Positions 1 to 23,613 of a stretch of DNA of 64,000 bases are shown here, in pieces. Position 1 is the first letter of the stretch. Each line of letters starts with the position of its first letter. Below the pieces are notes generated by a model. The model was not told the origin of the DNA. It did not search any database and saw only the letters and a program-made list of their open reading frames with translations. The position numbers were made by a program, and so were the translations under genes. Source of the DNA: Candidatus Poribacteria bacterium (GTDB lineage: Bacteria > Poribacteria > WGA-4E > WGA-3G); NCBI GenBank assembly GCA_963663765.2, contig CAXXUA010000011.1:64001-128000 (forward strand), written 5' to 3'.

Positions 1-1
1 T

Positions 2-1588: not shown

Positions 1589-1695
1589 ACTCGGTTTTTG
1601 GAAGTTCATAATTAGAGTTTGAAAGTAATTCCTATTGGAAGAAGATGGAAAGTTTTTGAGTAATAATCATTTTTGTTCTGAATTATGACATTTTA

Positions 1696-1724
1696 GCAAC
1701 CCATCCACTGAAAAATTGTGTCAC
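1696..1724 (+). promoter_or_regulatory. putative ECF-type promoter GCAACC-N17-TGTCAC
   Basis: Same motif and spacing upstream of three sigma-WD40 paralogs; resembles the ECF -35 AAC / -10 CGT pattern. Confidence 0.6.
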
Positions 1725-1761
1725 TATAATTGTATCCCTAAAATGAACATTGAGGTGTCGG

Positions 1762-4599: not shown

Positions 4600-4672
4600 T
4601 GTCTTCAATCATAATATCTGCGTTGGTAATAGCACAATTCATTGTTCGTGTTATGTACTCTGTGACAATTCT

Positions 4673-4701
4673 GCAACCTATTTGCCGAAGAAACGCGTCA
4701 C
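4673..4701 (+). promoter_or_regulatory. putative ECF-type promoter GCAACC-N17-CGTCAC
   Basis: Second copy of the conserved motif, identical spacing. Confidence 0.6.
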
Positions 4702-4745
4702 CGATAATTATAATTGTAAGACAAAATTGATGATGGAGGTGTCGG

Positions 4746-7463
4746 ATGGAAAAAGATGACGTTAAATTAATCCACAGGACATTATCAGGTGACGATACTG
4801 CTTTCAGTGAGTTAGTCCAAAAATACCAAAAAAGTGTTCACGCCCTTGCCTGGCGTAAAATCGGTGATTTCCATATCGCTGAAGAAATCACACAAGACAC
4901 TTTTCTGCAGGCGTATAAAAAACTTGCAGCATTGAAAAATCCTAATCAGTTTGCTGGATGGTTGTATGTAATCGCAGATAGACGTTGCAAAGCATGGTTT
5001 CGAAAAAAGCGATTTCATACACAATCGCTTGAAGCTACCAGTGAAGAAACATTAGAGAAAAGTGCTTATGCAGACTATGTGTGTGAACAGCGCGAAGACG
5101 CAGCCGTTGAACACCGCCGACAAATTGTGCTAAAACTCATGGAAAAACTACCAGAGAGCGAACGCACGGTTATGGTATTGCATTACCTCGGAGAAATGAG
5201 TTGTGTAGCGATTAGCAAGTTTTTAGGTGTATCTCCCAATACAGTAAAAAGTCGACTTAAACGTGGACGAGAACGTTTACAGAATGAAGAATCCCTAATT
5301 CGCAAAACGCTTGGTAGTGTGCCATTATCTCCAAATCTAACTGAAAACATCATGCGGCGTATTGCCACAATCAAACAACCATCTCCATCAGGAAGTAAGC
5401 CATTGGCACCATTTGCAGCATTAGGAGCATCTGCTATTTTGGTTATTTTGCTTATGGGCGCGAGCAAGCAACTCATCACAAATTTTCAGCAGCCATATAG
5501 TCTTGATGCTAAATCAGAAACAACAATTGAAATTGTTGACGCGCCGATTGTTCTGAATCTTCACTCAAAACCAAAATTGCAAAACCGGGTTGATGGTGCT
5601 AATCGCAGCAAAAACAGTAACAACGGTCTAACAAAAGGAACAAACAAAGTGGAAAACAACTCAGCACAAGATGTTATGCAATGGAACCTACCTGAAGATG
5701 CTAAAGCGCGTCTCAGTAAAGGGTATATAGCCGATATAAAATATTCTCCTGATGGTAAGTTTCTGGCTGTTGCAAGTGGCATCGGTATTTGGCTTTACGA
5801 TGTGACAGTACATCAAGAGGCAAGTCTAATCACAGGAAATACGAGTTTTCAAAACGACTGCCTTGCCTTCAGTACGGATGGACGTACCTTAGCGAGTGGA
5901 AATGTTGATGGCACTATTACTCTGTATGATATAATCGCAGGGACGCAAAAAACGCTCATTGGGCATAATGGAGAATATATCACATGTATAGCACTCAGTC
6001 CGGATGGCAAAATACTTGCGAGTAGTAATCGGGAAGGCACTATCCGATTATGGAATGCTATCACTGGAGAGGCGAAGTTTACTCTCATGAATGATGTGGG
6101 TCATAATTTTTCATTCACACCAGATAGCAATGCCATTGTGGTTGTAAGTAGTGAAGACAAGATCAATCTGTGGAATTTGAACACAGGTGAGCACAAGAAA
6201 ACTTTTGCTTTGCACCCTGATTGTGCTGCTATAGGTGTAGCGTTCAGCTCAGATGGAACAACAGTCGCTGTTGGTAGTGTAAATGGCACTGTCTACCTTT
6301 ATGATATAAACACAGGCGAACTGAAGATGATCCTCTCTGAGCATAAGGATCACGTTATCCACTTAGCATTTAGCCCTGATGGAAAAGGACTTGCTACTAC
6401 GTCTTATGAAGATGAAACAATCTGTCTATGGGATGTACACACTGGTACACACAGGAGAATACTCACCGAACACCCGCGATGTGCAGGGAGCGGGGGTTTA
6501 ACGTTCAGTCCGGATGGAAAAACAATTGCGAGTGGAGGTGGCGATGGCACCATACGGTTCTGGGATGTCCACACCGGCAACACGAAAGAGATATTCACTG
6601 GTCATTCGCAGGAGGTCCGCAGTGTGGCATTCAATCCGAATGGGAACTATATCGCAAGTGGGTGCGCTAGTGGAATTATTCGTCTGTGGGATGCGGATAC
6701 ATGGCAACCCATAAGAACACTTAACGAGCCTAAAAATGGGCAGATAGAATCGGCTTATAGTATAGTGTTCAGTCCAGATGGAAAAACTCTATTTTGTGGG
6801 ACTGACGATGACATCCACCTCTGGGATGCACACACTGGCGAACACAAATTGATGTTTACTGGACATACCGGTTTTGTTAAGCATATAACACTCAGTTTGG
6901 ACGGAAATATACTTGCAAGTGAAGATGGCGATACTATCCACCTCTGGGATGCACACACTGGCGAACATAATAGAACACTCATTGGACATAATAAGTCGAT
7001 CAGTAGTATCGCGTTCAGTCCGGATGGAAAAATCCTCGCAAGCGGAAGTCTGGATGAAACTATTCGTCTCTGGGATGTTGCAACTGGGAAAAATAAAATG
7101 TTACTTACTGAGCATAATGACTGGGTGGAAGGTTTAGCGTTCAGTCCGGATGGAAAAATCCTCGCAAGTGGAGGTAATGATGCGATAATCCACCTATGGG
7201 ATACAAACACATGGAAAATCAAATATACACTTAACGGACATCCATTTTTGATGTGCTTAAGGTTCAGTCCTAATGGTAAAACTTTAGCAAGTGGCTGTGG
7301 TGACGGCACTATTCAATTATGGGATGCCCAGACCTGCGAACATAAGAAAACACTCACGGGTCATATCACTCATGTCAATAGTATCGCATTTAGTCCGGAT
7401 GGAAAAACGCTTGTTAGCGGTAGTAGTAATGGTTCTGTGCTTCTTTGGGAAATAAATCCCTAA
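4746..7463 (+). CDS. ECF sigma-70 factor fused to TM helix and WD40 repeats
   Basis: First ~315 aa nearly identical to the previous gene; WD40 region divergent; GGAGG RBS. Confidence 0.92.
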   Translation: MEKDDVKLIHRTLSGDDTAFSELVQKYQKSVHALAWRKIGDFHIAEEITQDTFLQAYKKLAALKNPNQFAGWLYVIADRRCKAWFRKKRFHTQSLEATSEETLEKSAYADYVCEQREDAAVEHRRQIVLKLMEKLPESERTVMVLHYLGEMSCVAISKFLGVSPNTVKSRLKRGRERLQNEESLIRKTLGSVPLSPNLTENIMRRIATIKQPSPSGSKPLAPFAALGASAILVILLMGASKQLITNFQQPYSLDAKSETTIEIVDAPIVLNLHSKPKLQNRVDGANRSKNSNNGLTKGTNKVENNSAQDVMQWNLPEDAKARLSKGYIADIKYSPDGKFLAVASGIGIWLYDVTVHQEASLITGNTSFQNDCLAFSTDGRTLASGNVDGTITLYDIIAGTQKTLIGHNGEYITCIALSPDGKILASSNREGTIRLWNAITGEAKFTLMNDVGHNFSFTPDSNAIVVVSSEDKINLWNLNTGEHKKTFALHPDCAAIGVAFSSDGTTVAVGSVNGTVYLYDINTGELKMILSEHKDHVIHLAFSPDGKGLATTSYEDETICLWDVHTGTHRRILTEHPRCAGSGGLTFSPDGKTIASGGGDGTIRFWDVHTGNTKEIFTGHSQEVRSVAFNPNGNYIASGCASGIIRLWDADTWQPIRTLNEPKNGQIESAYSIVFSPDGKTLFCGTDDDIHLWDAHTGEHKLMFTGHTGFVKHITLSLDGNILASEDGDTIHLWDAHTGEHNRTLIGHNKSISSIAFSPDGKILASGSLDETIRLWDVATGKNKMLLTEHNDWVEGLAFSPDGKILASGGNDAIIHLWDTNTWKIKYTLNGHPFLMCLRFSPNGKTLASGCGDGTIQLWDAQTCEHKKTLTGHITHVNSIAFSPDGKTLVSGSSNGSVLLWEINP

Positions 7464-7732
7464 ATTTCACTTGCCTAATGTTTAACGTGAGTTTGATAAA
7501 TCAGAATTTAGGACTCGATATAATACGCTAAATTAAGAAATCTACGGTATGAATCATGGAGCATACCACACGTGCATGCTTCTTTAGGCATTCCCCCTGT
7601 GGTATTCTCCATTGGTTAGGAAACCGCACTTAAGTCAATGTCATAGTAGTTTTGATTTCACTACAATCTTCATTCATAGGGAATGCAATAGTCCTATCAA
7701 GAATTACAGTAATTCTGAATTATGTCATTTAT

Positions 7733-7761
7733 GCAACCTTTCCACTGCATAATCGCGTCAC
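7733..7761 (+). promoter_or_regulatory. putative ECF-type promoter GCAACC-N17-CGTCAC
   Basis: Third copy of the conserved motif, identical spacing. Confidence 0.6.
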
Positions 7762-7800
7762 CTATTATTGTATGCATAAAATGAACATGGGTGGAATTTA

Positions 7801-10536
7801 ATGGAAAAAGACGACGTTCAATTGATTCAACAGATTTTGGTAGGTGATGAATCTGCTTTTGGTGATTTAGTCCAAAAACATCAAAAAAGTGTGCATGCAG
7901 TTGCATGGCGTGAAATTGGGGATTTTCATTTCGCTGAAGAAATTACGCAAGATGTCTTTCTTCAGGTCTACAAAAAATTACCTACGTTAAAAGACCAGAA
8001 CCTTTTTTCTGGTTGGCTCTATGTCATCACGAAAAGGCAGTGTATTGCATGGAAACGAAAGAACAAACAATCAATACGATCAGTGGATACCATGAATCAA
8101 GAAAGATTGGATGATACAGCCTATTCGCAGTATGTTTCAGAACAGCGAGAGGACGCAGCATCTGAATACCGTTATCAAATAGTGCAAAATTTACTGGAAA
8201 AACTTCCTGAGATTGAACGGACAGTCATGGTACTTCACTACCTTGGAGAAATGACGTGTGAGGCAATCGGTAAGTTCTTAGGTGTGTCACCGAACACAGT
8301 TAAAAGTCGTTTGAGTCGTGCGCGAAAACGTTTGAGGGAGGAGGATGCTATTTTACGCGAAACGCTTGGGAGTGTTTCACTATCTCCGAATCTGACACAG
8401 AATATCTTGGAAAAAATCAGAAACATTGAACAGACACCCCCTTCTGATAGTAAACCGCTGTTGCCTTTAGGGGCATTAGGATCTTCTATAGTCTTAATTG
8501 TTTTTCTTTTAGGAATGAGTAATCAATTCTTGACTCAATATCAGTTACCTTATAGTCTTGATGCACAATCAGAAACAACCATAGAAATTGTTGAAGCACC
8601 GATTATAACTGAAATTAAATCTACATCTGATGAACAAAAAAGAGTTGGTAGCAACACTTCACCTGGGAACAGTAGTAACAATGGTTTCCAAAAAGGAAAT
8701 AAAGAAATGCAGAACAATCTTCACCAAGATTCAACAAAATGGAAATTACCCGATGGAGCAAAAGCACGGTTAGGAAAGGGACACATATTTGATATGGCAT
8801 ATTCCCCTGATGGCAAACTGCTTGCTGCTGGAGGTACGATCGGAATTTGGTTATACGATGCAAACACAGGAAAAGAACTTAACCTGTTTGTGGAAAACAT
8901 GGAAAGTTCCGGAACTATCGCTTTCAGTCCGGACAGTCAACTTCTTGCTTCTAATGGTAGTGATAACGCTATCTTATTATGGAATCCCTTTACTGGAGAG
9001 CATAAGGCAACTCTAAAGGGGCATCAAGATAGTGTTAATTCCGTTGTGTTTAGTCCTGATGGTAAAACAATCGCGAGTGGAAGTGATGATGAGACAATTC
9101 GGTTTTGGAATGTTGCATCTGGGGAACTCCTACGAACCTTTGCTGGGCATGGGGGTGGTGTTTCTGAAGTCATCTATTCCCCAGATGGAAAAGTCCTTAT
9201 CAGTTATGGAAGTGATAAGATGATACACTTATGGAATGCTCAATCAGGAGAATTCATGCATACCCTTAACGGACATAAAGGCAGTATTTCTGAAATTTTA
9301 TTCTCTTATGACGGTAAGTATTTTGCAAGTGGTGGTGGGGATGGGAGAATACGGTTGTGGGAACTACATACAAGTCACGAGAAACCAACTTTAGAAATAG
9401 AAGCCACTTCAGCACTCCACGGTTTTCGTACAATAACATTCAGTCCAACTGATAGTATACTTGTCTGTTCAAATTACGGAGATGATGAAATTCAGTTTTG
9501 GGATGTAGAGACAGGTAAATTGCTCAAAACCATTGATAGTCCAGAGGATACAACCTATCATCTTGCATTGTCGCCAGATGGAAAGACACTTGTGAATGCA
9601 GGGGGTGACGGAACAATCCTGTTCTGGGATGTTGCTACTTCTAAATCTAAACTTACCCTAACTGGATATGCTGAGATGTTTAGGGATATGGCTTATTCAC
9701 CTGATGGTAGTACCCTTGTTACTGTAAGTAGCGGTCCGAGTCTTCGGTTATGGGACACCAACAGTGGCAAGCTAAAAAAGACTTACTATCCGGGTACGGT
9801 AAACATCACTTGTATTACTTTTGCACCGGATGGTGTGACACTTGCGTGTGGTCCTGGTCCATACGAATACGACACAGTATTTCTACTTAACACTGAAACG
9901 GGTGAATTTGGACGTATCTTCCAAGGTGACTATGAAGGTTTTGAATCAGTAGCATTTAGTTCTGATGGGAAGACGCTTGCAAGTGGCGATGACAATGGTA
10001 ACATCTATTTGTGGGATGTTGAAACGGGTGAAAAAGTAAGAATAATTGAATGGGAACAAGATATTGTCAGAACGGTGGAATTTTCACCAGATGGTGAAAC
10101 CCTTGTCAGTACCAATGATTCAAAAGTCTGTTTTTGGGATATAAACACTGGCAAGTCGGTAAAAACAATTACTGCGACTTCAATTGTTATCTCACCAGGA
10201 TGGGATAAGTTTGTATGTGTTAATTGGGTAAAGGGTGGTACTACGCAGTTTTGGAATATGGGGGATGACGAACCAGTTAAGACCATCACACCGGAAGAAA
10301 GAACCTATTTTCAGGAGTATTCACCAGATGGAAAAACAATTGTGGGTACCGGTCCCAGAGAAACTATATCATTTTGGGATGCTAATACTCATGAGGTATT
10401 GCATACGATTTCTGATGAACATAAAAAAAGTTCAAGGTACGAGCGTACTTATTTTGTTAGGTATTCACCGGATGGACGCACCATTGCAACCGCAGGATGG
10501 GACAGCACTGTGCTGTTATGGGATGCTCCACGTTAA
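7801..10536 (+). CDS. ECF sigma-70 factor fused to TM helix and WD40 repeats
   Basis: Sigma 2/4 motifs (FAEEITQDVFLQVY; TVKSRLSRAR), TM LLPLGALGSSIVLIVFLLGM, WD repeats. Confidence 0.92.
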   Translation: MEKDDVQLIQQILVGDESAFGDLVQKHQKSVHAVAWREIGDFHFAEEITQDVFLQVYKKLPTLKDQNLFSGWLYVITKRQCIAWKRKNKQSIRSVDTMNQERLDDTAYSQYVSEQREDAASEYRYQIVQNLLEKLPEIERTVMVLHYLGEMTCEAIGKFLGVSPNTVKSRLSRARKRLREEDAILRETLGSVSLSPNLTQNILEKIRNIEQTPPSDSKPLLPLGALGSSIVLIVFLLGMSNQFLTQYQLPYSLDAQSETTIEIVEAPIITEIKSTSDEQKRVGSNTSPGNSSNNGFQKGNKEMQNNLHQDSTKWKLPDGAKARLGKGHIFDMAYSPDGKLLAAGGTIGIWLYDANTGKELNLFVENMESSGTIAFSPDSQLLASNGSDNAILLWNPFTGEHKATLKGHQDSVNSVVFSPDGKTIASGSDDETIRFWNVASGELLRTFAGHGGGVSEVIYSPDGKVLISYGSDKMIHLWNAQSGEFMHTLNGHKGSISEILFSYDGKYFASGGGDGRIRLWELHTSHEKPTLEIEATSALHGFRTITFSPTDSILVCSNYGDDEIQFWDVETGKLLKTIDSPEDTTYHLALSPDGKTLVNAGGDGTILFWDVATSKSKLTLTGYAEMFRDMAYSPDGSTLVTVSSGPSLRLWDTNSGKLKKTYYPGTVNITCITFAPDGVTLACGPGPYEYDTVFLLNTETGEFGRIFQGDYEGFESVAFSSDGKTLASGDDNGNIYLWDVETGEKVRIIEWEQDIVRTVEFSPDGETLVSTNDSKVCFWDINTGKSVKTITATSIVISPGWDKFVCVNWVKGGTTQFWNMGDDEPVKTITPEERTYFQEYSPDGKTIVGTGPRETISFWDANTHEVLHTISDEHKKSSRYERTYFVRYSPDGRTIATAGWDSTVLLWDAPR

Positions 10537-10589
10537 TTTTATATATATAAACTCTAAGGCAACACAAATCCTAAGGAACCCACAATCAG

Positions 10590-12554
10590 ATGAAAATAAC
10601 AAATCTCTTGTTAAATGAATTACCACTGCTTTCTATTGTACTCTTTTTCACTTTTTACTCCATAGCAGCATTTGCTCAAATTCATAATCAATTAGGATTA
10701 CCAGAGGGAGCAAAAGCGCGTCTGGGAAAGGGCGGAATAAAGCATATAAAGTATTCTCCTGATGGCAAGTATTTTGCAGTCGCAACGTCCATAGGTATCT
10801 GGCTGTATGATGTTAATACATTACAAGCAGTTGACCTACTTACAGGTCATGATGCGCCTGTTACATCAATTGCATTTAGTATAGATGGACAAACGTTAGC
10901 GTCAAGTTGTGCGGACAATATTATCATCATCTGGAACACAGAAACACGTAAAATCAAAGCGAAAAATGTTGAATTTGATAAAGGCAAAAAAGACATAAAT
11001 TTATTAACTTTTTGTCCTTCGGGTGATATAGTAGCATGTATTAGTAGATCATGGTTCATTGAATTATTGAATGCACATACTGGAAAACTTATTAAGACAA
11101 TTAAAGATTCAAGAAATACAGATATAAACGCAATGGCATTTTCAACTGAAGACAATATGCTTATTACTGTTGGGTTTTGCGAAAGAAACACATCGTGTAT
11201 TGAATATTGGGATACAGGTGCAGGTGAACTGATTAGAGATATATTGATAGAAACAAATATTACTGATGCCGCGTTTTCTCCAGACAACAAAATACTTGCT
11301 GTCACTGGGAATAATTCGCACCCTCTCCAATTTTGGGATGTGAAGACAGGAAAGCATCTCAAAAATGCCGAGAAAAGTGATGTGGATTATGAGTATATTG
11401 CATTTTCTCACGATGGAAGTAGACTCGTAACAGGTGGTTCTTGGGAGTATGTAAGTCTTTGGGATGTAGACACGGTTGAAGAATTATACAACGTGGCGCA
11501 TGGTGAACCGATTAATTCTGTGGCATACTCACCAGATGGCGGGACAATAGCATGTGGTATTGACGATGGCACAATCCAGATATGGGATACTTCTACGGGA
11601 AAACTCCAAAACACTATCAAAGGACACTTAGATTTATCAATTTTCTCAATGGCTTTTTCACCTGATGGCAATAAGCTTGCGTGTGGTGCAGATTCCAAAG
11701 TCCTATTTTGGAATCCACACACCTACGAACATCTAAAAACCACAAAGGAGCCACGTTGTAAAGTCGTTGATATAGAATATTCTCCTGATGGTAATATTTT
11801 TGCTACAGTAGGTACTTCAATGAAAGCACGTTTGTGGGATAGACAAACGGGAAGGTTCCTTGGAAGTTTTATCGGAAATCATGAGAAGTATTTTTATAGT
11901 GCTTATAGAGATAAAGAAAAATTCACTTCTGTATCTTTCTCACCTGATGGTAACACACTTGCGACTGGTGATACAGACAATGAGGTTTGTTTATGGGCAA
12001 TACGCACAGGAGAACAATATCTAATTGGGGAACAACTTGCAACCTTTACAGAGCATACAGAGACTGTGACCTCCGTTGCGTTTTCACCAGATAGAAAAAC
12101 ATTGGCAAGTGGCAGCCTTGACAAGACAATTCGTTTGTGGGATGTGAAGGCGCGTAAACACCTCAAAGCAATCTCTGGACATGAAAAAGGGGTGAACGTA
12201 TTAGCCTTTTCACCAGATGGTAAAATACTTGCAAGTGGCAGTGAAGATGGTACTATACGATTATTGAAAATAGATGATTATGAAATCTTGTATGCACCAA
12301 TAGAAAATGTTGGGAATGTCAATGCTATAGCATTCTCTTCTGATGGAAAGATTCTAACAAGCATAAATAGTGATAGCAAATATATCAACTTTTGGAATGT
12401 GCAGACAGGTAAACTGATGCATACCTTTTCTGGACACACAAAAATCATCAATGCTATAGTATATTCACCAGATGGAGAAACACTTGCGAGTGTTAGTTCT
12501 GATGGTACTGTTCTTTTGTGGGATCTCAGAAAATTGATAAGTGATAACAGGTGA
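10590..12554 (+). CDS. secreted WD40-repeat protein
   Basis: Signal-peptide-like N-terminus (LLSIVLFFTFYSIAAFA-Q), LPEGAKARLGKG motif, WD repeats. Confidence 0.9.
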   Translation: MKITNLLLNELPLLSIVLFFTFYSIAAFAQIHNQLGLPEGAKARLGKGGIKHIKYSPDGKYFAVATSIGIWLYDVNTLQAVDLLTGHDAPVTSIAFSIDGQTLASSCADNIIIIWNTETRKIKAKNVEFDKGKKDINLLTFCPSGDIVACISRSWFIELLNAHTGKLIKTIKDSRNTDINAMAFSTEDNMLITVGFCERNTSCIEYWDTGAGELIRDILIETNITDAAFSPDNKILAVTGNNSHPLQFWDVKTGKHLKNAEKSDVDYEYIAFSHDGSRLVTGGSWEYVSLWDVDTVEELYNVAHGEPINSVAYSPDGGTIACGIDDGTIQIWDTSTGKLQNTIKGHLDLSIFSMAFSPDGNKLACGADSKVLFWNPHTYEHLKTTKEPRCKVVDIEYSPDGNIFATVGTSMKARLWDRQTGRFLGSFIGNHEKYFYSAYRDKEKFTSVSFSPDGNTLATGDTDNEVCLWAIRTGEQYLIGEQLATFTEHTETVTSVAFSPDRKTLASGSLDKTIRLWDVKARKHLKAISGHEKGVNVLAFSPDGKILASGSEDGTIRLLKIDDYEILYAPIENVGNVNAIAFSSDGKILTSINSDSKYINFWNVQTGKLMHTFSGHTKIINAIVYSPDGETLASVSSDGTVLLWDLRKLISDNR

Positions 12555-12590
12555 ATTTGGACTGTAAGGGTGTGTCCAGTATGTGTTACT

Positions 12591-12786
12591 TGTCTGAACC
12601 AAGATTTTCAGGATTTACAGATTTTCAGGATTTACCCCATCAAGGGTTTTTGATATGCTTTATGCTCTCTTTTGGAATAGGATTGGATAAGAAAAATCTT
12701 GATAATCTGCTAATCCCGGGGAATGCCAAAAGGCATTCATACCGTTGATTTCTTGATTTCTTGATTTGAAAATCCTGGTTCAAACA
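12591..12786. repeat. inverted-repeat element (TCTGAACC-AGGATTTTCAGGATT...AATCCTGAAAATCCTGGTTC) carrying a 50-bp insertion
   Basis: Reverse-complement homolog without the insertion at 42253-42396. Confidence 0.75.
12717..12766 (+). mobile_element. small hairpin + TCTTGATT-tail insertion element, copy 1
   Basis: CGGGGAATGCCAAAAGGCATTCATACC-GTTGATT-(TCTTGATT)2, inserted at AATCC^TGAAAATCC relative to the 42.3 kb homolog. Confidence 0.65.
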
Positions 12787-12922
12787 AAGAAAAAACATGA
12801 CACATCAATACAAAATACATCTATTAGACAACATCAGACAGGTAATTTTTCATTTTTTTAAACCCTCACCTTATATCCCTTTCTCTTTATATTAAAACCT
12901 AATTGATTTTTTGTAGATTTCT

Positions 12923-15481
12923 ATGGATATGGAAAATCTAAACGATCTTACAGATATAGAACTTATTCAGCGCGTCCAAAACCGTGATGAAGCCGCATTT
13001 GCGGAACTCATGTCCCGTTGGACGCCACGGATTTGGCGTATCGTTGTCTCAAAATCAAGGCAACATCGGGATGCGGAAGAAATTCATACTGATGTCTGGA
13101 TGGCTGTGTGGGAAAATATAGGGGGTCTCCGTAATATAGATAGTTTTGGTGCATGGCTGCGACGCATTGCATATAACGCTTGTAAGAGATATTATTCTTC
13201 TCATCGCCGCTCACGAGACGAAATCCCACAGAGCGATGCAGATTTAGTGGAACATATTGACCAAGATGCACCTGCACGTTATCAGGAAGCACAATTACGC
13301 GCAGATGCCAGAGAAGCGGTGAATCATCTTCCGCATCGGGTACGTCCTATAGCGATATTGTACTATCTTGAATCATGGAGTGTCAAAGACATTGCACACA
13401 AACTTAACTTAGCTATAGGCACAGTCAAGACAAGATTAAGAGAAGTCCGTTCACTTCTGCGGAAGGAGTTTGCTGTTGAACCTCAACAAGGAGATATTAT
13501 GTCGTTAGAATCCGTTGGATCACAAAATCTTGCGAATTATATTGAAAACTATCTACCGAAAGGCGCAATAACACGGTTCGGAAAAGGTTGTGTATTTGGT
13601 TTAGCATATTCGCCAGATGGCACCAGACTTGCTTTAGCAAGCACAATAGGTGTCTGGATGATCGATGTAGCAACCGGTGAGGAAATCAATCTGTTAACTG
13701 GACATACTGGTCATTTAACTGGACATACTTATTATGTCGAATACGTTGTTTTCAGTCCTGATGGTAAAACACTTGCAAGTCTAAGTAAAGGATACCAAGG
13801 CGATGATGTTATTCGTTTATGGGATGCTGCAACTGGTGATTTTATAGCGGTACTAACAGAGGATACATATCTTGTTGTATTTAGTCCTGATGGTAAAACG
13901 CTGGCAAGCGGCGGTGGTGGAGTAATTCATTTATGGGATGGTGCCACATTCGAACTAAAAACAACTCTCATAGGACACACACCACCAGTCAAAACGTTAA
14001 CGTTCAATCCAGATGGCAGCACACTCGCAAGCGGTGGTATTGATGAGGTAATCCGTTTATGGGATGTTACCACTGGTGAACTACAGTTAACATTTGCAGG
14101 ACACGCAAATTCTGTCGATTTTCTGAAGTATTCTCCAGATGGAAAGGTGCTTGTCAGTCAAGGTGGGGATAACAATGTTTGTTTATGGAATGCACGGACT
14201 GGTGAATTTTTGCGCATACTTACTACAGAAGACCCTTCTTGGCACGGTCTGAATATTGACTTTTCAAAAGATGGGAAAACTCTTGTGAGTGTGAATTCCG
14301 ATGAAAATGTCCGATTGTGGAACCCACATACCGGTGAGCAACTAAAAACAATAAAACAAGATAGAGAGCTTGAGGTAGTGCAGTATTCTCCAGATGGTAG
14401 AATATTTGCATGTAGTGAGTGTTATGGAGAAGCAACAGTCCAACTATTTGATGCTGCCACGGGAGAGCCATTACATTTTCTTAAAATGCCTGAACATGCA
14501 GAATGGGTTACTGATTTTCAATTTTCTCCAGATAGGCAGACACTTGCCGTTAAAACAGCGGAAGAAATATATTTCTGGGATGTGAATACTGGTGAACTTG
14601 AAAAGACAATCACCGGATATTCTGATGTAGTAAGTAGTGTAACATATTCTCCTGGTGGGAGAACATTAGCGAGCTTAGACAATTTCGTCCGTATTTGGGA
14701 CTTAGACACGCAGAAACTCGTAAAAACACTTTCCCCTAAAACACTTTCTGTAAAAGGATCAATAAGGGCAATCGCGTATTCTCCTAATGGGGAGATACTC
14801 GCTTGTGGAACTATGGATAAAACGATAGTACTATGGGATGTCCACAAGTGGAAAAAAAGAGGTGTACTCAAAGGACATACAGATGGCGTATCCTCGATAA
14901 CCTTTAGTCCAGATGGACAAACACTCGCTAGTGGCTGCTGGAACGGGACGATCCGATTGTGGAATGCTCACACAGGAGAAAACTTAAAAACCTTTGATAG
15001 GCATGCATCAAGTGTTCGCACAGTTTTATTTTCACCTAATGGACAGATCTTAGCCAGTATTGAAGAAGATGAAACAATTCGTTTTAGGAATGTTGCAACG
15101 GGGAAGCTTGTGAATGCTATAAAAATGGAAACAGATGTTGATGTCTGTTCTATAGATTTTTCTCCTGATGGGACAACCTTTGTTACCGCAGACGACAGAA
15201 CGAAAATCAATTTTTGGGATGTGGTAACTGCGGATCCAAAACCTATGACACACTTAGAAGCAAAAGGTTATTATGCTGTCCTTTCACCAGATGGGAATAC
15301 ACTTGCATGTGCTGATGTTGGGGATGAAATATTATTGTGGGATGTTGTCACAGGAAAACTTCTGAAAACTTTAAAAGGGCATATAAGTGGTATTAATTCT
15401 ATAGTCTTTTCTTCAGATGGTAAATCACTCGCGAGTTGCTGTAGGGACAGCACAGTAATTTTATGGGATTTAACGACGTAG
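12923..15481 (+). CDS. ECF sigma-70 factor fused to WD40 repeats, no TM helix
   Basis: DAEEIHTDVW, FGAWLRRIAYN, AIGTVKTRL; directly followed by LPKGAITRFGKG and WD repeats; no hydrophobic segment. Confidence 0.92.
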   Translation: MDMENLNDLTDIELIQRVQNRDEAAFAELMSRWTPRIWRIVVSKSRQHRDAEEIHTDVWMAVWENIGGLRNIDSFGAWLRRIAYNACKRYYSSHRRSRDEIPQSDADLVEHIDQDAPARYQEAQLRADAREAVNHLPHRVRPIAILYYLESWSVKDIAHKLNLAIGTVKTRLREVRSLLRKEFAVEPQQGDIMSLESVGSQNLANYIENYLPKGAITRFGKGCVFGLAYSPDGTRLALASTIGVWMIDVATGEEINLLTGHTGHLTGHTYYVEYVVFSPDGKTLASLSKGYQGDDVIRLWDAATGDFIAVLTEDTYLVVFSPDGKTLASGGGGVIHLWDGATFELKTTLIGHTPPVKTLTFNPDGSTLASGGIDEVIRLWDVTTGELQLTFAGHANSVDFLKYSPDGKVLVSQGGDNNVCLWNARTGEFLRILTTEDPSWHGLNIDFSKDGKTLVSVNSDENVRLWNPHTGEQLKTIKQDRELEVVQYSPDGRIFACSECYGEATVQLFDAATGEPLHFLKMPEHAEWVTDFQFSPDRQTLAVKTAEEIYFWDVNTGELEKTITGYSDVVSSVTYSPGGRTLASLDNFVRIWDLDTQKLVKTLSPKTLSVKGSIRAIAYSPNGEILACGTMDKTIVLWDVHKWKKRGVLKGHTDGVSSITFSPDGQTLASGCWNGTIRLWNAHTGENLKTFDRHASSVRTVLFSPNGQILASIEEDETIRFRNVATGKLVNAIKMETDVDVCSIDFSPDGTTFVTADDRTKINFWDVVTADPKPMTHLEAKGYYAVLSPDGNTLACADVGDEILLWDVVTGKLLKTLKGHISGINSIVFSSDGKSLASCCRDSTVILWDLTT

Positions 15482-15514
15482 GAATCATACATCAAGAATA
15501 GAGATAAGGAAGAC

Positions 15515-17428
15515 ATGAACATGCAAAAACCGCAACTTTCCACACAGTGGAGGCTTCCCCCAGGTGCCAAGAAACGTATCGGAAAAGGAGGGATAAATGA
15601 GATTAAGTACTTTCCGGATGGCACACGACTCGCTGTTGCCGGCACAATAGGGGTCTGGATTTATGATGTGCAAACCTGCAAACCCCTTGAACTGATTACT
15701 GGACATACTGGTCCAGTCAATTCATTAGTATTCAGTCCAGATGGTGGAACGTTTGCAACCGCGAGTGATGATAAGACTACACGTTTGTGGGATACCATTA
15801 CAGGTGAGAACAAAGCAAGTTTCGTAGGACATAAGGACGTTGTAAACTCCGTCGCCTTCAGTCCAGATGGCGAATTGCTTGCCACTGCAAGTGACGACAA
15901 AACGATTGGTATCTGGAATTTGCACACGGGAGAACAGATAGCAAAGCTTGAGGGGCATACGGAGAAAGTTTTTTCAGCAGTGTTTTCGCCAGATGGTACT
16001 GTGCTTGCCAGTAGTGAGGCTTGGGGTGGAAAAGGCGGAATTTGGGTTTGGGATGCAAACACCTACGAATTCCTAAAATTGTTTGAGGGAGAGACAGATT
16101 GGATAGAATATATCGTATACAGTCCTGATGGTAACATACTCATTAGTCGAGAAACTTGTGTAGAAGTTAATTTTTGGGATGCTAACACAGGTAAAAAACT
16201 GAAATCGTGTGAAGCAGAAAGTTGGATGAGTGATTTTTCCCCCATTACATTTACTTCTGATGGAAACTCATTCGCTACTGGAATACATGGCGGTGATGTC
16301 TGTCTTTGGGATATTGACACTGGAAGATTGTTGAAAAAGTTTGAACTTGAGGAAGATTTAGATTCTTTGCCCTCTTCTGTAGCATTTTCACCCGATGGTG
16401 AAACAATTGCTTGTGCAAGTGAGGATGGAACGATTCGGTTTTGGGACGTATACACCGCTAAAATTTCAAGAGTGATTATGGAACATACACCTCATCACTC
16501 TTCTACGCAAAAAACAGAGGGGACACATCCACCATCTCAACGAACCTTTTCTGTTGCGTATTCTCCAAATGGCAGGACTCTCGCAAGTTGCTATGGGAAC
16601 GAAATTCATTTTAGGAATCCAGATACAGGAGAAATCCAAACAACTATCACAGGACCGCGTGAAAACGTCCGTTCAGTCATGTATTCATCAGATGGAAAAA
16701 TACTTGCAAGTGCTGAGGATACAACAAAAGCTCGATTATGGGATACTCAAAACGGAAGATTCCTTGGTTCCTTCGTTGGGCATAAGGAAAGTATATCTGC
16801 AGTGGCGTTTTCTCCAGACGGTCGCATGTTTGCCACTGGTAGTCATGACAACACAATCTGTTTATGGGAAGTCCGTAAAGGTGAACTGTATCTTATTGGC
16901 GATTTGTTATTGACACTGGCAGGACACACTGATAAAGTTACCGATGTGACCTTCTCGCCAGATGGAGATACTTTTGCTTCAAGCAGTGATGATAGCACAG
17001 TCCGATTATGGGATGTCAAAACTGGAAATCCGAGGAAAACACTTATTGGACACACTGCAAGAGTCCACGCAGTGGAATACTCACCAAATGGTAGTGTCCT
17101 TGCCAGCGGAGGATGTGATGGAACGGTCCACCTCTGGAACAGTCAGACCGGTGAACTCAGACAGACTCTCAACACACATAAACAATGCGTATATTCAGTG
17201 GCATTTTCTCTAAATGGTAAGATTATTTCTTGTGGAACGAATGGTATAATGTACTTATGGAACATGCAAACAGGAGAATTGCTACATACCTATAGTGGAC
17301 ATACGGATGTGATTGATAGTATCGCATATTCACCGGATGGTAAGACACTCGCGAGTGCAAGTAGAGACGGCACTGTGCTGTTGTGGGGTTTAGTCGCTTT
17401 GGACAAAGAAGGCGAGACACTGGTATGA
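15515..17428 (+). CDS. cytoplasmic WD40-repeat protein
   Basis: WD repeats, LPPGAKKRIGKG motif, no signal peptide; AAGGA RBS. Confidence 0.9.
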   Translation: MNMQKPQLSTQWRLPPGAKKRIGKGGINEIKYFPDGTRLAVAGTIGVWIYDVQTCKPLELITGHTGPVNSLVFSPDGGTFATASDDKTTRLWDTITGENKASFVGHKDVVNSVAFSPDGELLATASDDKTIGIWNLHTGEQIAKLEGHTEKVFSAVFSPDGTVLASSEAWGGKGGIWVWDANTYEFLKLFEGETDWIEYIVYSPDGNILISRETCVEVNFWDANTGKKLKSCEAESWMSDFSPITFTSDGNSFATGIHGGDVCLWDIDTGRLLKKFELEEDLDSLPSSVAFSPDGETIACASEDGTIRFWDVYTAKISRVIMEHTPHHSSTQKTEGTHPPSQRTFSVAYSPNGRTLASCYGNEIHFRNPDTGEIQTTITGPRENVRSVMYSSDGKILASAEDTTKARLWDTQNGRFLGSFVGHKESISAVAFSPDGRMFATGSHDNTICLWEVRKGELYLIGDLLLTLAGHTDKVTDVTFSPDGDTFASSSDDSTVRLWDVKTGNPRKTLIGHTARVHAVEYSPNGSVLASGGCDGTVHLWNSQTGELRQTLNTHKQCVYSVAFSLNGKIISCGTNGIMYLWNMQTGELLHTYSGHTDVIDSIAYSPDGKTLASASRDGTVLLWGLVALDKEGETLV

Positions 17429-17478
17429 ATACCTTATGAAGATTTATTTATTAAACGACTGATTAAATATATCTCTCC

Positions 17479-17745
17479 ATAAACGTCAATTTAAGAAGAT
17501 ATTGTTGGCATTTTCTGTTATGGGAGGGTTTTCAACCCCGATTTTTCTCATTTCCTCTCAAATCGGGGTTGAAAACCCCTCCTACAAGAGAAACGACAAC
17601 AATATCTTCTTAAGGACTTATACAGTTTTCATGATCCATTTATGAGATATTCTTTACACACCCACGATTTTCCACCTATTTTGATGATATTTGTTCTAAA
17701 TCGAGGTTAGAAACTTCTCCTACCATTTATGAGATAGTTTGTACA
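17479..17745. repeat. REP/MITE cluster (GGGAGGGTTTTCAACCCCGATT / AATCGGGGTTGAAAACCCCTCCTAC doublet)
   Basis: Same hairpin family recurs near 21.8, 28.3, 28.4 and 34.85 kb. Confidence 0.7.
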
Positions 17746-17812
17746 TACCAAATTATTTGCTTGCATTTTTTGTATTTTATGTTTATAGTTAAGCGGGAGG
17801 TTAATATAGGGT

Positions 17813-18757
17813 ATGAAAGCTGAACTTAAGTTTCGCGATAATGGTAGATTTAGAATTGTTCAATTCACTGATATACATTGGCAAAATGGTGAATCTGTTG
17901 ACCAGAAATCTGCTGATCTAATGAAGAATGTGGCAAAAGCTGAAGCGCCCGATTTGATTGTGTTGACTGGAGATATTTTATCTGGTGGTGGATGTGATGA
18001 TGCTGCAGAATCTATGCGGCAGATTGTTCACATAATGGAGCAATGCGGGTTCACTTGGACAGCAGTGTTCGGTAATCATGATGACGAAGGAACTGCAAGT
18101 CGTCATGATTTAATGTCAGTCATGCAGGAGAGTGATTTGTCAGTTGTTGAACCAGGTCCGGCGGATATTCCCGGTGTTGGCAACTTTGTTTTGACTGTCC
18201 AACATAATAATGACAACTCACCTGCCGCGCTGCTCTATTTTCTTGATTCTGGTAGTTATGCGACGACAGATATTAGTGGTTATGGCTGGATCAAGAGGGA
18301 ACAAATAGAGTGGTATCTCGGTGAATCTTTGAATCAGAATGCGGGGAGAGAGAATCCATTGCCAGCGCTTGCTTTTTTTCATATCCCGATTCCTGAATAT
18401 GATGAAGTATGGGATTTTCACACTTGTTATGGTTTTAAGTATGAGGACGTATGTGCGCCTCGAATCAATACAGGTTTTTTTGCTGCGCTACACGAAGCCG
18501 GGGATGTGATAGGGACCTTCGTTGGGCATGAACATATCAACGATTTCTGGGGAGAGTTACACGGAATACGACTTTGTTATGGTAGAGCTACAGGTTACAA
18601 TACTTATGGTAGAGACGGATTTCCGCGAGGAGCACGGGTAATTGAATTAACTGAAGATGAAAGAAGATTTGAAACTTGGCTTCATCTGGACAATGGAACT
18701 ATTGTGCGTGAACAACCTGAGCATGCACCACTGCAGCGCACTTTTACTGAAAATTGA
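17813..18757 (+). CDS. calcineurin-like metallophosphoesterase
   Basis: Motifs QFTDIH, LTGD, GNHD, FFHIP, GHEH. Confidence 0.9.
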   Translation: MKAELKFRDNGRFRIVQFTDIHWQNGESVDQKSADLMKNVAKAEAPDLIVLTGDILSGGGCDDAAESMRQIVHIMEQCGFTWTAVFGNHDDEGTASRHDLMSVMQESDLSVVEPGPADIPGVGNFVLTVQHNNDNSPAALLYFLDSGSYATTDISGYGWIKREQIEWYLGESLNQNAGRENPLPALAFFHIPIPEYDEVWDFHTCYGFKYEDVCAPRINTGFFAALHEAGDVIGTFVGHEHINDFWGELHGIRLCYGRATGYNTYGRDGFPRGARVIELTEDERRFETWLHLDNGTIVREQPEHAPLQRTFTEN

Positions 18758-18803
18758 TGATACTGTTTTAAAGTTGTTGGATAGTATCCTTTAGGAGGAA
18801 AAT

Positions 18804-19148
18804 GTGAGAGCACAACCACAGATCTCTATTAGGCACGAAGATGACATAGCGATATTTGACATTACCGGGTATTTGACGAACGAATCTGAAGATGCGATCA
18901 GCGATGCTTATGCAGACAACGGCGTTCAGGAAACTAAGAAACTACTATTAAATTTTGATCGGCAAAGTTTTATTACAAGCAGTGGATTTGGAACTATAAT
19001 TAAACTGCTGTGGAAGACACGTGATAAAGGTCAAGAGCTGCGGATCGCACATCCTGCCATGCAGGTGCGAACGATATTTAATACGATAGGTTTGACACAG
19101 AGCATCGGTGTGTTTGCGTCTGAAGCAGAAGCATTAGAAGACTTTTGA
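18804..19148 (+). CDS. STAS-domain anti-sigma-factor antagonist-like protein
   Basis: 114 aa, FITSSGFG phospho-Ser-type motif, AGGAGG RBS, GTG start. Confidence 0.85.
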   Translation: MRAQPQISIRHEDDIAIFDITGYLTNESEDAISDAYADNGVQETKKLLLNFDRQSFITSSGFGTIIKLLWKTRDKGQELRIAHPAMQVRTIFNTIGLTQSIGVFASEAEALEDF

Positions 19149-19151
19149 GCA

Positions 19152-21044
19152 TTACGGAAATAGGGTGTACATATTCTGGTTGAAAAGTACTCCTAATAGA
19201 CTCCATAAGCTGCCAGCGAGAAATTGTCCGAAGATAAGACCTAAGAATAGGGGTAATGCTTTACGGTATGCCCGTACGCCGCCTCCGGTGAATAGTATTC
19301 TCTTGAACAGCCATCCTAAGAAGATGGAGAACCACATCCATCCGATTGCCCATCCATTACCGACAGCATATCCAACGGGGTAGAATGGCCACCAAAGGAA
19401 CTGTCTCTTTAGGACTGTCAGCACACCAGTAAAAAGGAATCCAAATCCCATGTGTTGAATTGCAGTTAGGTTAGGTGCTGCTGGGGAAGTGATCCAGTTT
19501 TGTAATCTTCTAAACTCTCCGACTCCCCAATAGGCAAATCGGTATTCATAATAGAGAGCGACATGTCCAACGACAGAGATAATCGCGCCGACTATGGATG
19601 CGACTATCAATGCGATAACTAAACGGTTTTCACTCAGTTTGAAGTGTCGACCAATTTTGAATGCTTCCAACTGGTGCGGCATTGGATGACAACGATAGCC
19701 GTAAGCAAGCCATGATAACAGTGTAGTGTTTGTCAAGTTTTGTGCACCTAAGGGTCGACTTCCCATGAATAGCAGCATTATTCGGTCAGGATGCACTCTA
19801 TGTAGTTCATGTGTTGGCGGACCGAGTTCAGCACGCATACGTGTCATACCTATACACAAAACCAAATAGATGCCGAAATAGCCAAGAGCAACCCATGGAG
19901 ATAGGCCTGCGAAATACCAGAAAATTACAACAAAAGCTAATCCAAAGATCAAACCGAAGACAGCAAGTTGATACAATCCATCCTTTGATCTAAATGAGAA
20001 AACGCTGCCTAAGACTCTTAATATCTCTCTTCGGCTTGTCCAGAGTGCAAGCAATCCTATTCCTATCCATGCGCCTGCTCGTTGTTCAGTTTGAAATGCA
20101 ATTGCCGTTGTCCAACCTGTGGCATTGAAAATGACACGTTGAACACCCCAAAATAGATAGAACACCCAAAATGATAGTGCTAAATCCAAAGGCATGAGAT
20201 ACCCAAGTCCAACCGCAAACGGGTAGACATAGACGGGTAATCTACCCATCGCATTCCAAGGTCTTTCAGCAAAAAAGAGTTGATACTTTATTTTCAATGA
20301 TGGGATTACTGGAAATAGGAAATTCAATCCAGCAAGGATTTCCAGTCCGAATGCAATACCGAAACCGAGCCATATCAGTTTATTTCGAAAAAGACTGGAA
20401 GTGTTACCAAGTAATTCAACAGGGAGTGTTGTTAGTGGGTAGCTAAGTTTTTCATGGTCAATCCATTGCTTACGGATGATGATGTTGATGCACATCATTA
20501 TGAAGAGCAGGACAATAACTAAGCTGCTCCAAGCGACTATCGGCCATAGCCATGCGTCTATGTAGCGAGCTTGCCAAAATGTATCTTCTCCTTCAAAATA
20601 ACCTTGTAGTATGCTTTTATCTGTAATCGTTAGCCACGTTGGTAGGTAGCGGAAGAAAATTTCACTCCATTCATTTTCTGGTGTTGCAAACCATCCTGCA
20701 TTTGCAATCATCGGGACTAATTGACGAACGATGTCGTGTCCTGCAAGTGCTGTCGCGACAGAAACCATGATGTAGGTCATTGCAAGTTCACGTGATGTTG
20801 GTGCAGCACGTTTGAAGTATTTTCTCAGTAAGGGTGCAATTGCTGCAAGAAGAAAGAACGTGAAGAGGACTGTTGGAAAGATAGAGAAATCAGTAAGTTC
20901 CCAAACCACGCGGTTTTCTGCGGAGATAATCCAATAACATGTTAGTATTATGAGGATAGAACCGAAGAGGAGAGTACCAACAATAAAGCGAAATGGTGTG
21001 GTTTTTTCAGTGTCCTTATATAAATTTGACTCACTGTGTAACAT
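19152..21044 (-). CDS. polytopic membrane protein (DUF6785/DUF6784-like, putative transporter)
   Basis: Many TM helices; QWxxxEKLSYPL and WWPFYPVGY...WFSIFLGW...PLFLGLIFG motifs. Confidence 0.7.
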   Translation of the reverse strand: MLHSESNLYKDTEKTTPFRFIVGTLLFGSILIILTCYWIISAENRVVWELTDFSIFPTVLFTFFLLAAIAPLLRKYFKRAAPTSRELAMTYIMVSVATALAGHDIVRQLVPMIANAGWFATPENEWSEIFFRYLPTWLTITDKSILQGYFEGEDTFWQARYIDAWLWPIVAWSSLVIVLLFIMMCINIIIRKQWIDHEKLSYPLTTLPVELLGNTSSLFRNKLIWLGFGIAFGLEILAGLNFLFPVIPSLKIKYQLFFAERPWNAMGRLPVYVYPFAVGLGYLMPLDLALSFWVFYLFWGVQRVIFNATGWTTAIAFQTEQRAGAWIGIGLLALWTSRREILRVLGSVFSFRSKDGLYQLAVFGLIFGLAFVVIFWYFAGLSPWVALGYFGIYLVLCIGMTRMRAELGPPTHELHRVHPDRIMLLFMGSRPLGAQNLTNTTLLSWLAYGYRCHPMPHQLEAFKIGRHFKLSENRLVIALIVASIVGAIISVVGHVALYYEYRFAYWGVGEFRRLQNWITSPAAPNLTAIQHMGFGFLFTGVLTVLKRQFLWWPFYPVGYAVGNGWAIGWMWFSIFLGWLFKRILFTGGGVRAYRKALPLFLGLIFGQFLAGSLWSLLGVLFNQNMYTLFP

Positions 21045-22110: not shown

Positions 22111-23613
22111 TTATGGAAGGTAGGGTGGATCAACCGCGGCATTGGTTGGTATTCCATCATAGTACACTTCACCGCCGTTTAGTAACAACACACGGTTTGC
22201 GTATTTATTGGAAAGTTCAATATTGTGTGTCGCGAAAATTAGTGTTTTGTTTTCTTGTAGGATCTGATGACAGAGTTGGTCCATCATACGGTGTAGGTGT
22301 TGTTCATCTTGACCTGTAGTGGGTTCATCAAGTAGGAATACATCAGGATGTAAGGAAAATGTTGATGCGACTGCAACACGTTGGCGTTGCCCGCGTGAAA
22401 GTGAATAAGGGGAATCTTCTGTTAGTTCTTCTAAATTGAATTGATTGACGGTTTTATCAACACGGTCTATTAGCGCTTGGGATTTCAACTTAAGGTTCTT
22501 TGGACCAAATGCAATTTCTTCCCTGACGGTTTTTGCTTGTAGCAACAGATCAGGGTTTTGAAAGACTATACCAATCTTACCCGCTAACTGATGGAGTTTT
22601 AGACGTTTCATAGGTTTTCCCTCTATCATGACTACTCCAGTAGTAGGTTTCAGTAGACCTGCTATGAGATGAAGCAACGTTGTTTTCCCTGATCCATTTG
22701 CTCCCATTATTGAAATTATCTCTCCTCGTGATATATCACAAGATACGTCATTTACTGCTAAATCATCACTGTTTGGGTATTGATATTTGAGATCTCTGAT
22801 GGTAAGGATTGGATCAGACCTTGGAGGCGTATCTGTAGGTTTGGTTGTAGTGTTTATTTTAGAATTCACTTTTTCAGGAATTTGCACACCTAAACGACGA
22901 AAAACAGAGTCTTCTTGTAATGCATCTGATATTGGTAAGTCTAAGCAAATGTTGCCCTTGTCCATCAGCCAAACTCTGTTGCATAGGTGTGCAACCTGTT
23001 TGACTTGATGTGTTGCAATAACTATCGTCATACCTGTTTCCGTGTTAAGCTGCTTGACAATGCTTAGTATGTCGCTTGTTGCTCGTGGATCAAGATGACT
23101 GGTAGGTTCGTCCAATAGCAATACTTGTGTTTTCATAGCACAGAGGGCAGCAAGTGCGACGCGTTGTTTTTCTCCACCAGAAAGTTCCGATATGCGTCTA
23201 TTCTCAAATCCGGTTAATCCCACCTGTTCTAATGCCGAAGTAATTCGTTGTCTAATTTCATCTGGTGGAAACCCAAGGTTTTCAAGTCCAAATGCAATCT
23301 CGTCTTCAGCATGTGTACAGAAGAGTTGGTCATCTGGATTTTGGAATAGTAGGGATACCTGTTGACAAGTTGTACTGAGTGATTGTGTGGCAACGAGTTT
23401 TCCATTGACGTGGACAGCACCGGTTAGTTTACCTGAAGCAGCGTGTGGTATTAAACCGTTTATAGTGCGGAGTAATGTTGTTTTTCCACAACCAGTAGGT
23501 CCTGTTAGTAGCAAAAGATCACTGGATGAGATTTCAGCATTGATGCCGTAAAGCGTGGGAATATCACGACTTGGGTAGGTGTAAGAAAGGTTCTCAATCT
23601 GAATTGGCACCAT
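22111..23613 (-). CDS. ECF-type transporter ATPase with two fused ABC domains
   Basis: Two Walker A motifs (GPTGCGKT, GANGSGKT), FQNPD Q-loops, LSGGEKQR/LSRGQRQR signatures, LDEPT. Confidence 0.9.
   Translation of the reverse strand: MVPIQIENLSYTYPSRDIPTLYGINAEISSSDLLLLTGPTGCGKTTLLRTINGLIPHAASGKLTGAVHVNGKLVATQSLSTTCQQVSLLFQNPDDQLFCTHAEDEIAFGLENLGFPPDEIRQRITSALEQVGLTGFENRRISELSGGEKQRVALAALCAMKTQVLLLDEPTSHLDPRATSDILSIVKQLNTETGMTIVIATHQVKQVAHLCNRVWLMDKGNICLDLPISDALQEDSVFRRLGVQIPEKVNSKINTTTKPTDTPPRSDPILTIRDLKYQYPNSDDLAVNDVSCDISRGEIISIMGANGSGKTTLLHLIAGLLKPTTGVVMIEGKPMKRLKLHQLAGKIGIVFQNPDLLLQAKTVREEIAFGPKNLKLKSQALIDRVDKTVNQFNLEELTEDSPYSLSRGQRQRVAVASTFSLHPDVFLLDEPTTGQDEQHLHRMMDQLCHQILQENKTLIFATHNIELSNKYANRVLLLNGGEVYYDGIPTNAAVDPPYLP

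Follow-up and report, generated by a model that had tools for sequence, protein, structure and literature searches.

Two adjacent gene pairs, D-E and F-G, on the + strand of a 64,000-nucleotide stretch from a sponge-associated Candidatus Poribacteria bacterium (C11:64001-128000 of a 6.35 Mb genome in 15 contigs; the whole stretch is called the window below) are best explained as two bicistronic operons of one lineage-specific design. In this design the first gene, X, encodes an extracytoplasmic function (ECF)-type sigma factor fused to a double seven-bladed WD40 propeller, and the second, Y, a free double propeller of a sister paralogous lineage. In D-E the sigma domain would be tethered to the inner membrane by one helix, with the propellers outside and E exported, and in F-G both proteins would be cytoplasmic. 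D-E and F-G each represent a real, conserved two-gene unit. As to function, comparison of the sequences suggests that X and Y may form a feedback module, acting either by binding or by competition for a ligand, a reading that we put forward as plausible though tentative.

The earlier note on this DNA had described a transmembrane (TM)-bearing sigma-WD40 gene followed 53 nt later by a signal-peptide WD40 gene, and a TM-less sigma-WD40 gene followed 33 nt later by a WD40 gene with no signal peptide; coordinates, gaps and domains are borne out for both pairs (Table 1). Pfam Sigma70_r2 and r4 (and r4_2) were matched in D and F, as well as in the upstream genes B and C, and TIGR02937 (sigma70-ECF superfamily) gave 98.8 bits for D and 77.7 bits for F, as against a cut-off of 42.9, with no equivalog cut-off being reached. 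Having regions 2 and 4 only and scoring above the superfamily cut-off, D and F are ECF (group 4) sigma-70 factors. B, C and D share one plan, in which one hydrophobic helix and a linker of about 90 aa lie between the ECF sigma domain and the WD40 region. The hydrophobic helix of D lies near residues 220-241 (19-residue Kyte-Doolittle mean 2.33), and F has none (maximum 1.13); these TM assignments, like those of signal peptides, come from a hydropathy heuristic rather than from SignalP or DeepTMHMM, and the hydropathy of the sigma linkers is cleanly bimodal, at most 0.40 or at least 2.13. The N-terminus of E is a classic signal peptide with the end AFA/Q. G starts 12 residues ahead of the propeller entry motif, and its open frame reaches only 11 codons farther upstream.

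The propellers of the window match PF00400 (WD40) with E-values of 1e-80 to 1e-114. An AlphaFold2 model of G, made from a 38-sequence alignment, has a mean pLDDT (predicted local distance difference test) of 88.6 and a pTM (predicted template modelling score) of 0.87, and is all-beta with two lobes parted by a low-confidence or disordered loop at residues 332-341; together with the PF00400 matches this identifies WD40 proteins with a predicted closed beta-propeller fold. Two segments quoted earlier as distinctive of the partners do occur in E and G alone among the 5301 open reading frames (ORFs) of at least 120 aa in the genome, and one of them is modelled as an unusually long hairpin, residues 447-469, in the second lobe of G. 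No anti-sigma domain (ASD/zf-HC2/RskA) was found in the first 320 aa of D or the first 216 aa of F, which matched only sigma and helix-turn-helix families; E and G matched only propeller families, with no RseB/MucB or anti-sigma domain among the best 25 of 65-67 families. That G might be an anti-sigma factor binding the sigma domain is unlikely as a general rule, since the homologous E is exported, out of the reach of sigma.

Conservation of the pairs was followed in 40 same-genus genomes, 36 of which hold loci, defined as places matching G at E <= 1e-100 and each taken with its upstream gene; all of the compared genomes come from one family. D-type sigma genes were found without reference to the partner (at least 55% identity from residue 1-2, intact or broken, n = 28). 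An E-type gene is next in 24 of them and comes after an intervening sigma-less D-type gene in 2; one of the remainder has no E-type gene and one lies at a contig end, giving a downstream E-type gene for 26 of the 27 assessable cases. From the other side, G orthologues stand behind an F-type TM-less sigma gene in 17 of 18 cases in the tree described below and in 3 outside it, or 20/21. An F orthologue (at least 66% identity) is present in 17 same-genus genomes, all 17 of which have a G orthologue, and the G-less genomes sampled in both the F and the G searches also have no F (14/14). Exported E-type genes (n = 30) lie behind an intact D-type sigma-TM fusion in 19 cases and behind a signal-less propeller ORF in 8, the other 3 being cut or fragmentary; the 8 upstream ORFs comprise 6 D-type propellers truncated at an internal Met, one D-type sigma gene in three ORFs and one that is disrupted by an inserted ORF. 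The six E-type genes that have no signal peptide follow TM-less sigma fusions of 794-798 aa (3), sigma-less propellers (2) or an unrelated gene (1). Duplicated pairs remain pairs (three D-E pairs in genome G007, two in G010), the pair is kept despite changed flanks in G003, and the whole D-E-F-G quartet recurs in several genomes (loci L032 and L041, for example), the median X-Y gap being about 37 nt for F-G and about 53 nt for D-E. The best 120 matches to a query spanning the sigma junction of F contain no full-coverage, organism-named match outside Candidatus Poribacteria; among the names given to them at source are "sigma-70 family RNA polymerase sigma factor" and "hypothetical protein".

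Such pairs could also arise with no specific functional link, as a by-product of tandem duplication and N-terminal module swapping, adjacency and localisation then being inherited within one genus and unselected. The family is indeed very large and tandemly arrayed, its N-terminal modules (sigma-TM, sigma, signal peptide or none) swap inside single clades, broken, insertion sequence-disrupted and truncated copies are common, and the evidence is all from related genomes. Such an origin fits the frequent breakage and module swapping, but it fits poorly with an adjacency that holds both ways and with pairs that stay intact at 57-85% protein identity, through flank changes and duplications; the genes, too, are intact, most matches having no internal stops, and X and Y are long-separated lineages, neither of them a recent copy of the other. 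We consider it distinctly unlikely. Among the damaged copies, the D-type sigma gene at L012:188-2750 (G007) is interrupted by a 301-aa ORF (781-1686) that may encode a transposase, and D- or E-type genes are in pieces in G026, G042, G043 and G046; the broken copies reflect either frequent decay in the propeller family or assembly errors in metagenome-assembled genomes.

The separateness of the two lineages is seen in a FastTree phylogeny of 181 distinct propeller cores, with a quick IQ-TREE as second tree, both being trees of repeat proteins. X and Y are sister superclades. The X superclade (64 cores, support 82) holds the sigma-fused propellers of B/C-type, D-type and F-type; the Y superclade (87 cores, support 99) holds the partners, namely E-type in the broad sense (36 plus 2), G-type (19) and two further clades labelled t198889 (12) and t209246 (18). 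When E is compared with 163 paralogues, G ranks first (44% identity), F 55th and D 77th, so the partners form an old lineage of their own and are not copies of the genes upstream of them; birth of E and G by tandem duplication of their own upstream genes was rejected on these ranks and on the separation of X from Y. The idea that E and G make up a distinct partner subfamily is thus upheld, as a monophyletic superclade apart from the sigma-fused propellers. In the quick IQ-TREE the branching of X is matched in detail by that of Y, down to an F'/G' trio: the F-like sigma genes of a sister genus cluster with an exported F-type gene of G023, and their partners with the partner of that gene.

Localisation is matched in all of the intact sigma pairs of the genus, 46/46 (39/39 in the main locus set and 7 more). 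The signal peptide has been lost independently twice in Y, once in the G clade and once in an E subclade of six members, and in both cases the neighbouring X lacks a TM helix.

The upstream regions of 18 D-type sigma genes have AATTATG-N-TGCAACC-N15-CGCGTC in common, with -35 and -10 elements arranged as is typical of ECF promoters. In 639 kb of loci there are 33 matches of GCAACY-N15-CGCGTC, the spacer always being 15 nt, and 28 of these are directly upstream of D/B/C-type sigma genes or their derivatives; genome-wide there are 8 matches, 6 of them upstream of sigma or propeller genes, and the window contains 2 matches of GCAACC-N15-CGCGTC as against 0.01 expected. The motif also precedes a sigma-less pair, C15_196788/198889. 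A different motif is found in 15 of 16 F-type upstream regions, and its sole match in the genome is the one upstream of F. The short gaps between X and Y have no such conserved promoter motif, and a sigma-70 promoter and terminator scan of positions 1-19200, which gave counts as in shuffled sequence (57 vs 52.4 and 11 vs 12.5, respectively), was left unused. These motifs make it likely that the X-Y operons are autoregulated, and the one that D-, B- and C-type genes have in common hints at cross-talk among paralogous sensors. At two loci, L061 (G007) and L082 (G032), D-type propeller genes start at an internal Met just before the propeller, with sigma, TM helix and linker lost, and the ECF-type promoter is retained some 110 nt upstream of them, so that their expression would need a paralogous sigma factor in trans.

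In the mechanism proposed here, the X-Y operon would be switched on by its own class of sigma factor, with the X propeller serving as a sensor that would keep sigma inactive, whether through its membrane tether or sterically. Y would be produced from the transcript that also encodes X, would reside in the same compartment and would feed back on this sensor, either by binding the X propellers, much as periplasmic RseB binds RseA, or as a decoy that competes for the same ligand. Direct binding between X and Y, considered by itself, is possible if doubtful. A more particular form of it, in which Y would be a dedicated paralogous gate and a cognate X-Y double-propeller heterodimer would hold sigma off until a ligand or a competing partner breaks it, seems rather unlikely. 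The two-protein signalling module with exported and cytoplasmic versions that had been proposed for these genes is supported in part: the pair and its compartments are conserved in the genus, but there are mismatches in a sister genus and Y clades that are independent of sigma.

A number of findings weigh against a feedback module. The loci were picked by similarity to G, and 31 candidates were scored per genome. Since the genomes are kin, the 46 localisation matches rest on about two evolutionary events. In G122 and G125, of the sister genus, a TM-less F'-type sigma fusion (57-58% identity) stands directly before a G'-type partner whose signal peptide is clear; these are mismatches in both of the related pairs examined, the genes overlapping in one, so that X and Y need not share a compartment. 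Mismatches are frequent among sigma-less pairs as well: exported t209246 genes lie behind a conserved signal-less propeller in 12/18 cases, and six exported E-type genes lie behind D-type propellers that have no sigma, TM helix or signal peptide, though a sigma-TM D-type gene is just upstream for two of those six. The covarying localisation that had been predicted thus holds within the genus, with its two losses beside a TM-less X, and fails in the sister genus and in many sigma-less pairs. Among the pairs themselves, the D-type sigma gene G035:C44 has no partner and the G orthologue of G040 follows an F-type propeller that carries a signal peptide in place of sigma.

The breadth of the association is a further point on that side. 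By our own ORF calling and phmmer with G, the genome has about 204 WD40-like ORFs, mostly of about 650 aa with a signal peptide and then the entry motif W-x-LPxGAxARxGKG; a hidden Markov model of the four window sigma domains found 28 sigma-fusion ORFs of at least 400 aa, 15 of which have a WD40 region. A free propeller comes directly after only 3 of these 15, namely D, F and C11_52044, and is missing downstream of the other 12 (B, C and 10 others), so that the free partner is a trait of particular subtypes and not of sigma-WD40 genes generally; the same count would suit pairs that are a by-product of duplication. The two other Y clades, t198889 and t209246, are behind a sigma fusion in 0/30 cases. 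The expectation that the partner subfamily would always follow a sigma-WD40 gene accordingly stands for D-type and G-type pairs, and not for Y or for sigma-WD40 genes as a whole.

The last of these points is the promoter, since the only non-sigma genes found behind it by the strict motif are propeller genes, and this also fits Y as an output of the pathway. The sigma-propeller would then sense a ligand and induce its own operon, and Y would be a secreted or cytoplasmic effector that binds without feedback and without contact to X. The strict-motif promoter stands almost only before sigma-fusion operons and the one sigma-less propeller pair already mentioned, which leaves propellers as the sole visible cargo, although a search of this strictness would miss diverged promoters of a regulon. 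The D-type propellers of L061 and L082, which retain the promoter without sigma or TM helix, point the same way, as do the mismatches tolerated in the sister genus and in sigma-less pairs, and some 200 mostly exported propellers per genome suggest a family of binders. An output role alone leaves unexplained why Y twice lost its signal peptide beside a TM-less X, why 46 of 46 pairs match, and why the partner comes in every case from the sister lineage instead of being a copy of X. It is the main rival to the feedback module; the promoter distribution and the tolerated mismatches add weight to it, and we would call it conceivable but on the doubtful side.

A close parallel to D-E in gene order and logic is found in the rpoE-rseA-rseB and algU-mucA-mucB operons, in which a sigma factor, a membrane-spanning regulator with a periplasmic domain and an exported protein that binds that domain are encoded in one autoregulated operon. 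D-E differs from these operons in that a single polypeptide holds both sigma and the membrane-spanning part, no anti-sigma domain being recognisable in it, and in having WD40 propellers on the periplasmic side; homology to RseA or RseB was not observed, and a fully cytoplasmic version, F-G, exists. F-G also recalls the ECF42-type factors, in which a soluble sigma is fused to a tetratricopeptide repeat (TPR) C-terminal extension thought to act via protein-protein interaction and a conserved neighbour gene is suspected as partner (PMC8999054). The repeats are TPR there and WD40 here, and the suspected ECF42 partner, a YCII-related protein, is not paralogous to the extension.

The fusion of sigma factors to WD40 extensions is itself known, from ECF57 (formerly ECF01-Gob) of the Planctomycetes, a group with membrane-spanning C-terminal extensions, some of them bearing WD40 repeats, for which the suggested trigger is membrane release or protein interaction (PMC8999054, PMC7826278); ECF57-like sigma factors are also present in Tuwongella (PMC8567305), and the abundance of WD40 in Poribacteria has been described (Kamke 2014, PMC3909097). 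As in ECF57, at least as these sources summarise it, the present genes encode an ECF sigma followed by a TM segment and WD40 repeats, come in several copies per genome and have no separate anti-sigma factor. ECF57 is, however, given as 100% Planctomycetes, and the present genes are from Candidatus Poribacteria; it has about two TM helices (PMC7826278), where D has one and F none by the hydropathy heuristic. That source reports no conserved promoter, and places carboxypeptidase-regulatory-like and TPR proteins in the gene context with no mention of a free WD40 partner (PMC7826278), whereas promoter and partner are both conserved in the poribacterial pairs. ECF57 is also said there to have a conserved Cys pair, in sigma2 and sigma4 (PMC7826278); D, B and C have one Cys in each region when compared by region rather than by aligned position, and the F-type has an invariant sigma2 Cys (C87) and no sigma4 Cys. 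TIGR02989, the Rhodopirellula/Verrucomicrobium family, gives 77 bits for D and 65 bits for F, below its cut-off of 124.55. In the literature searched, which did not extend to subscription journals (e.g., Jogler et al. 2012), there is no paper on a sigma-WD40 plus free-WD40 pair, no WD40-bearing ECF member has been studied and no partner protein is mentioned. The earlier suggestion that the whole module is undescribed therefore needs division: the sigma-WD40 fusion is already known, as ECF57, and what is new here is the conserved free-propeller partner.

Table 1. Propeller genes of the window and the conserved motifs upstream of D and F
Feature	Coordinates	Strand	Description
A	2-1588	+	C-terminal part of a 688-aa propeller gene; gene start upstream at C11:63522
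B	1762-4599	+	sigma-TM-WD40, without free partner; variant promoter GCAACC-N15-TGTGTC near 1696-1722
C	4746-7463	+	sigma-TM-WD40, without free partner; GCAACC-N15-CGCGTC motif at 4673-4699
ECF-type promoter motif GCAACC-N15-CGCGTC	7733-7759	+	42 nt upstream of D; kept before D-type sigma genes in other genomes
D	7801-10536	+	ECF sigma (r2+r4), one predicted TM helix, ~90-aa linker, 14-blade WD40; X lineage, D-type
E	10590-12554	+	predicted signal peptide, 14-blade WD40; Y lineage, E-type; 53 nt after D
F-type upstream motif TAAACCC-N18-TCTTTATATTAAAACC	12859-12899	+	conserved motif upstream of F
F	12923-15481	+	ECF sigma, ~25-aa linker, 14-blade WD40, no predicted TM helix; X lineage, F-type
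G	15515-17428	+	14-blade WD40, no predicted signal peptide; Y lineage, G-type; 33 nt after F

The two pairs close the head-to-tail run of propeller genes A to G. B and C, the sigma-TM-WD40 genes upstream of D, had not figured in the earlier note. Their sigma-TM-linker halves are almost identical and their propellers different, which points to recent duplication or gene conversion; terminator-like matches at 1853-1875 and 4837-4859 are duplicated as part of the same copy, and within B a stretch of about 24 residues is repeated in tandem (NGTIYLYDLNTG..., two copies). A opens with some 20 residues from the start of a D/B/C-type sigma domain, which run straight into the propeller entry motif, and GCAACC-N15-CGCGTC is still present about 196 nt before the gene; A has the look of a deletion product in which sigma and the TM helix were lost. 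An inverted repeat 3' of E, at about 12725-12745, looked like a GGAAT-N-GTT promoter or a hairpin. Beyond G, a gene at 19152-21044 (- strand) encodes an unrelated DUF6785+DUF6784 protein and lies beside genes for an ATP-binding cassette ATPase (22111-23613) and a B12-binding radical S-adenosylmethionine protein (23632-25620).

Elsewhere in the genome, the 13 other sigma-fusion ORFs, of 406-1071 aa, have C-terminal parts that phmmer with G did not match as WD40, and a TM helix is present in 8. Immediately before the window, C11:45900-65588 contains three more sigma-WD40 genes with no predicted TM helix, followed by four signal-less propellers of a separate "DVTTW-x-LP" class; one of these sigma-WD40 genes, C11_49532, is incomplete at its N-terminus, and its sigma domain and promoter are D-type. 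A similar run at C4:559321-574612 lies behind a stand-alone 205-aa ECF sigma gene. At C15:196474-211147 there is a sigma-less array in which X-type and Y-type propellers alternate, in the order F-type exported, t198889 exported, F-type without signal peptide and then t203565/t209246 pairs; the promoter in front of the array is almost identical to that of D, and the array is divergent from three sigma-WD40 genes at C15:180724-193193.

The X-Y pairs combine a conserved paralogue downstream with a defined promoter and occur naturally in both exported and cytoplasmic forms; they are a concrete, testable system that could show how a propeller controls a sigma factor. If Y does act as a gate, this would be a new form of ECF sigma regulation built entirely from WD40 propellers, working either outside or inside the cytoplasm, with a specificity that would co-evolve pair by pair. 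The pairs also link the huge and unexplained WD40 expansions of sponge symbionts to regulation.

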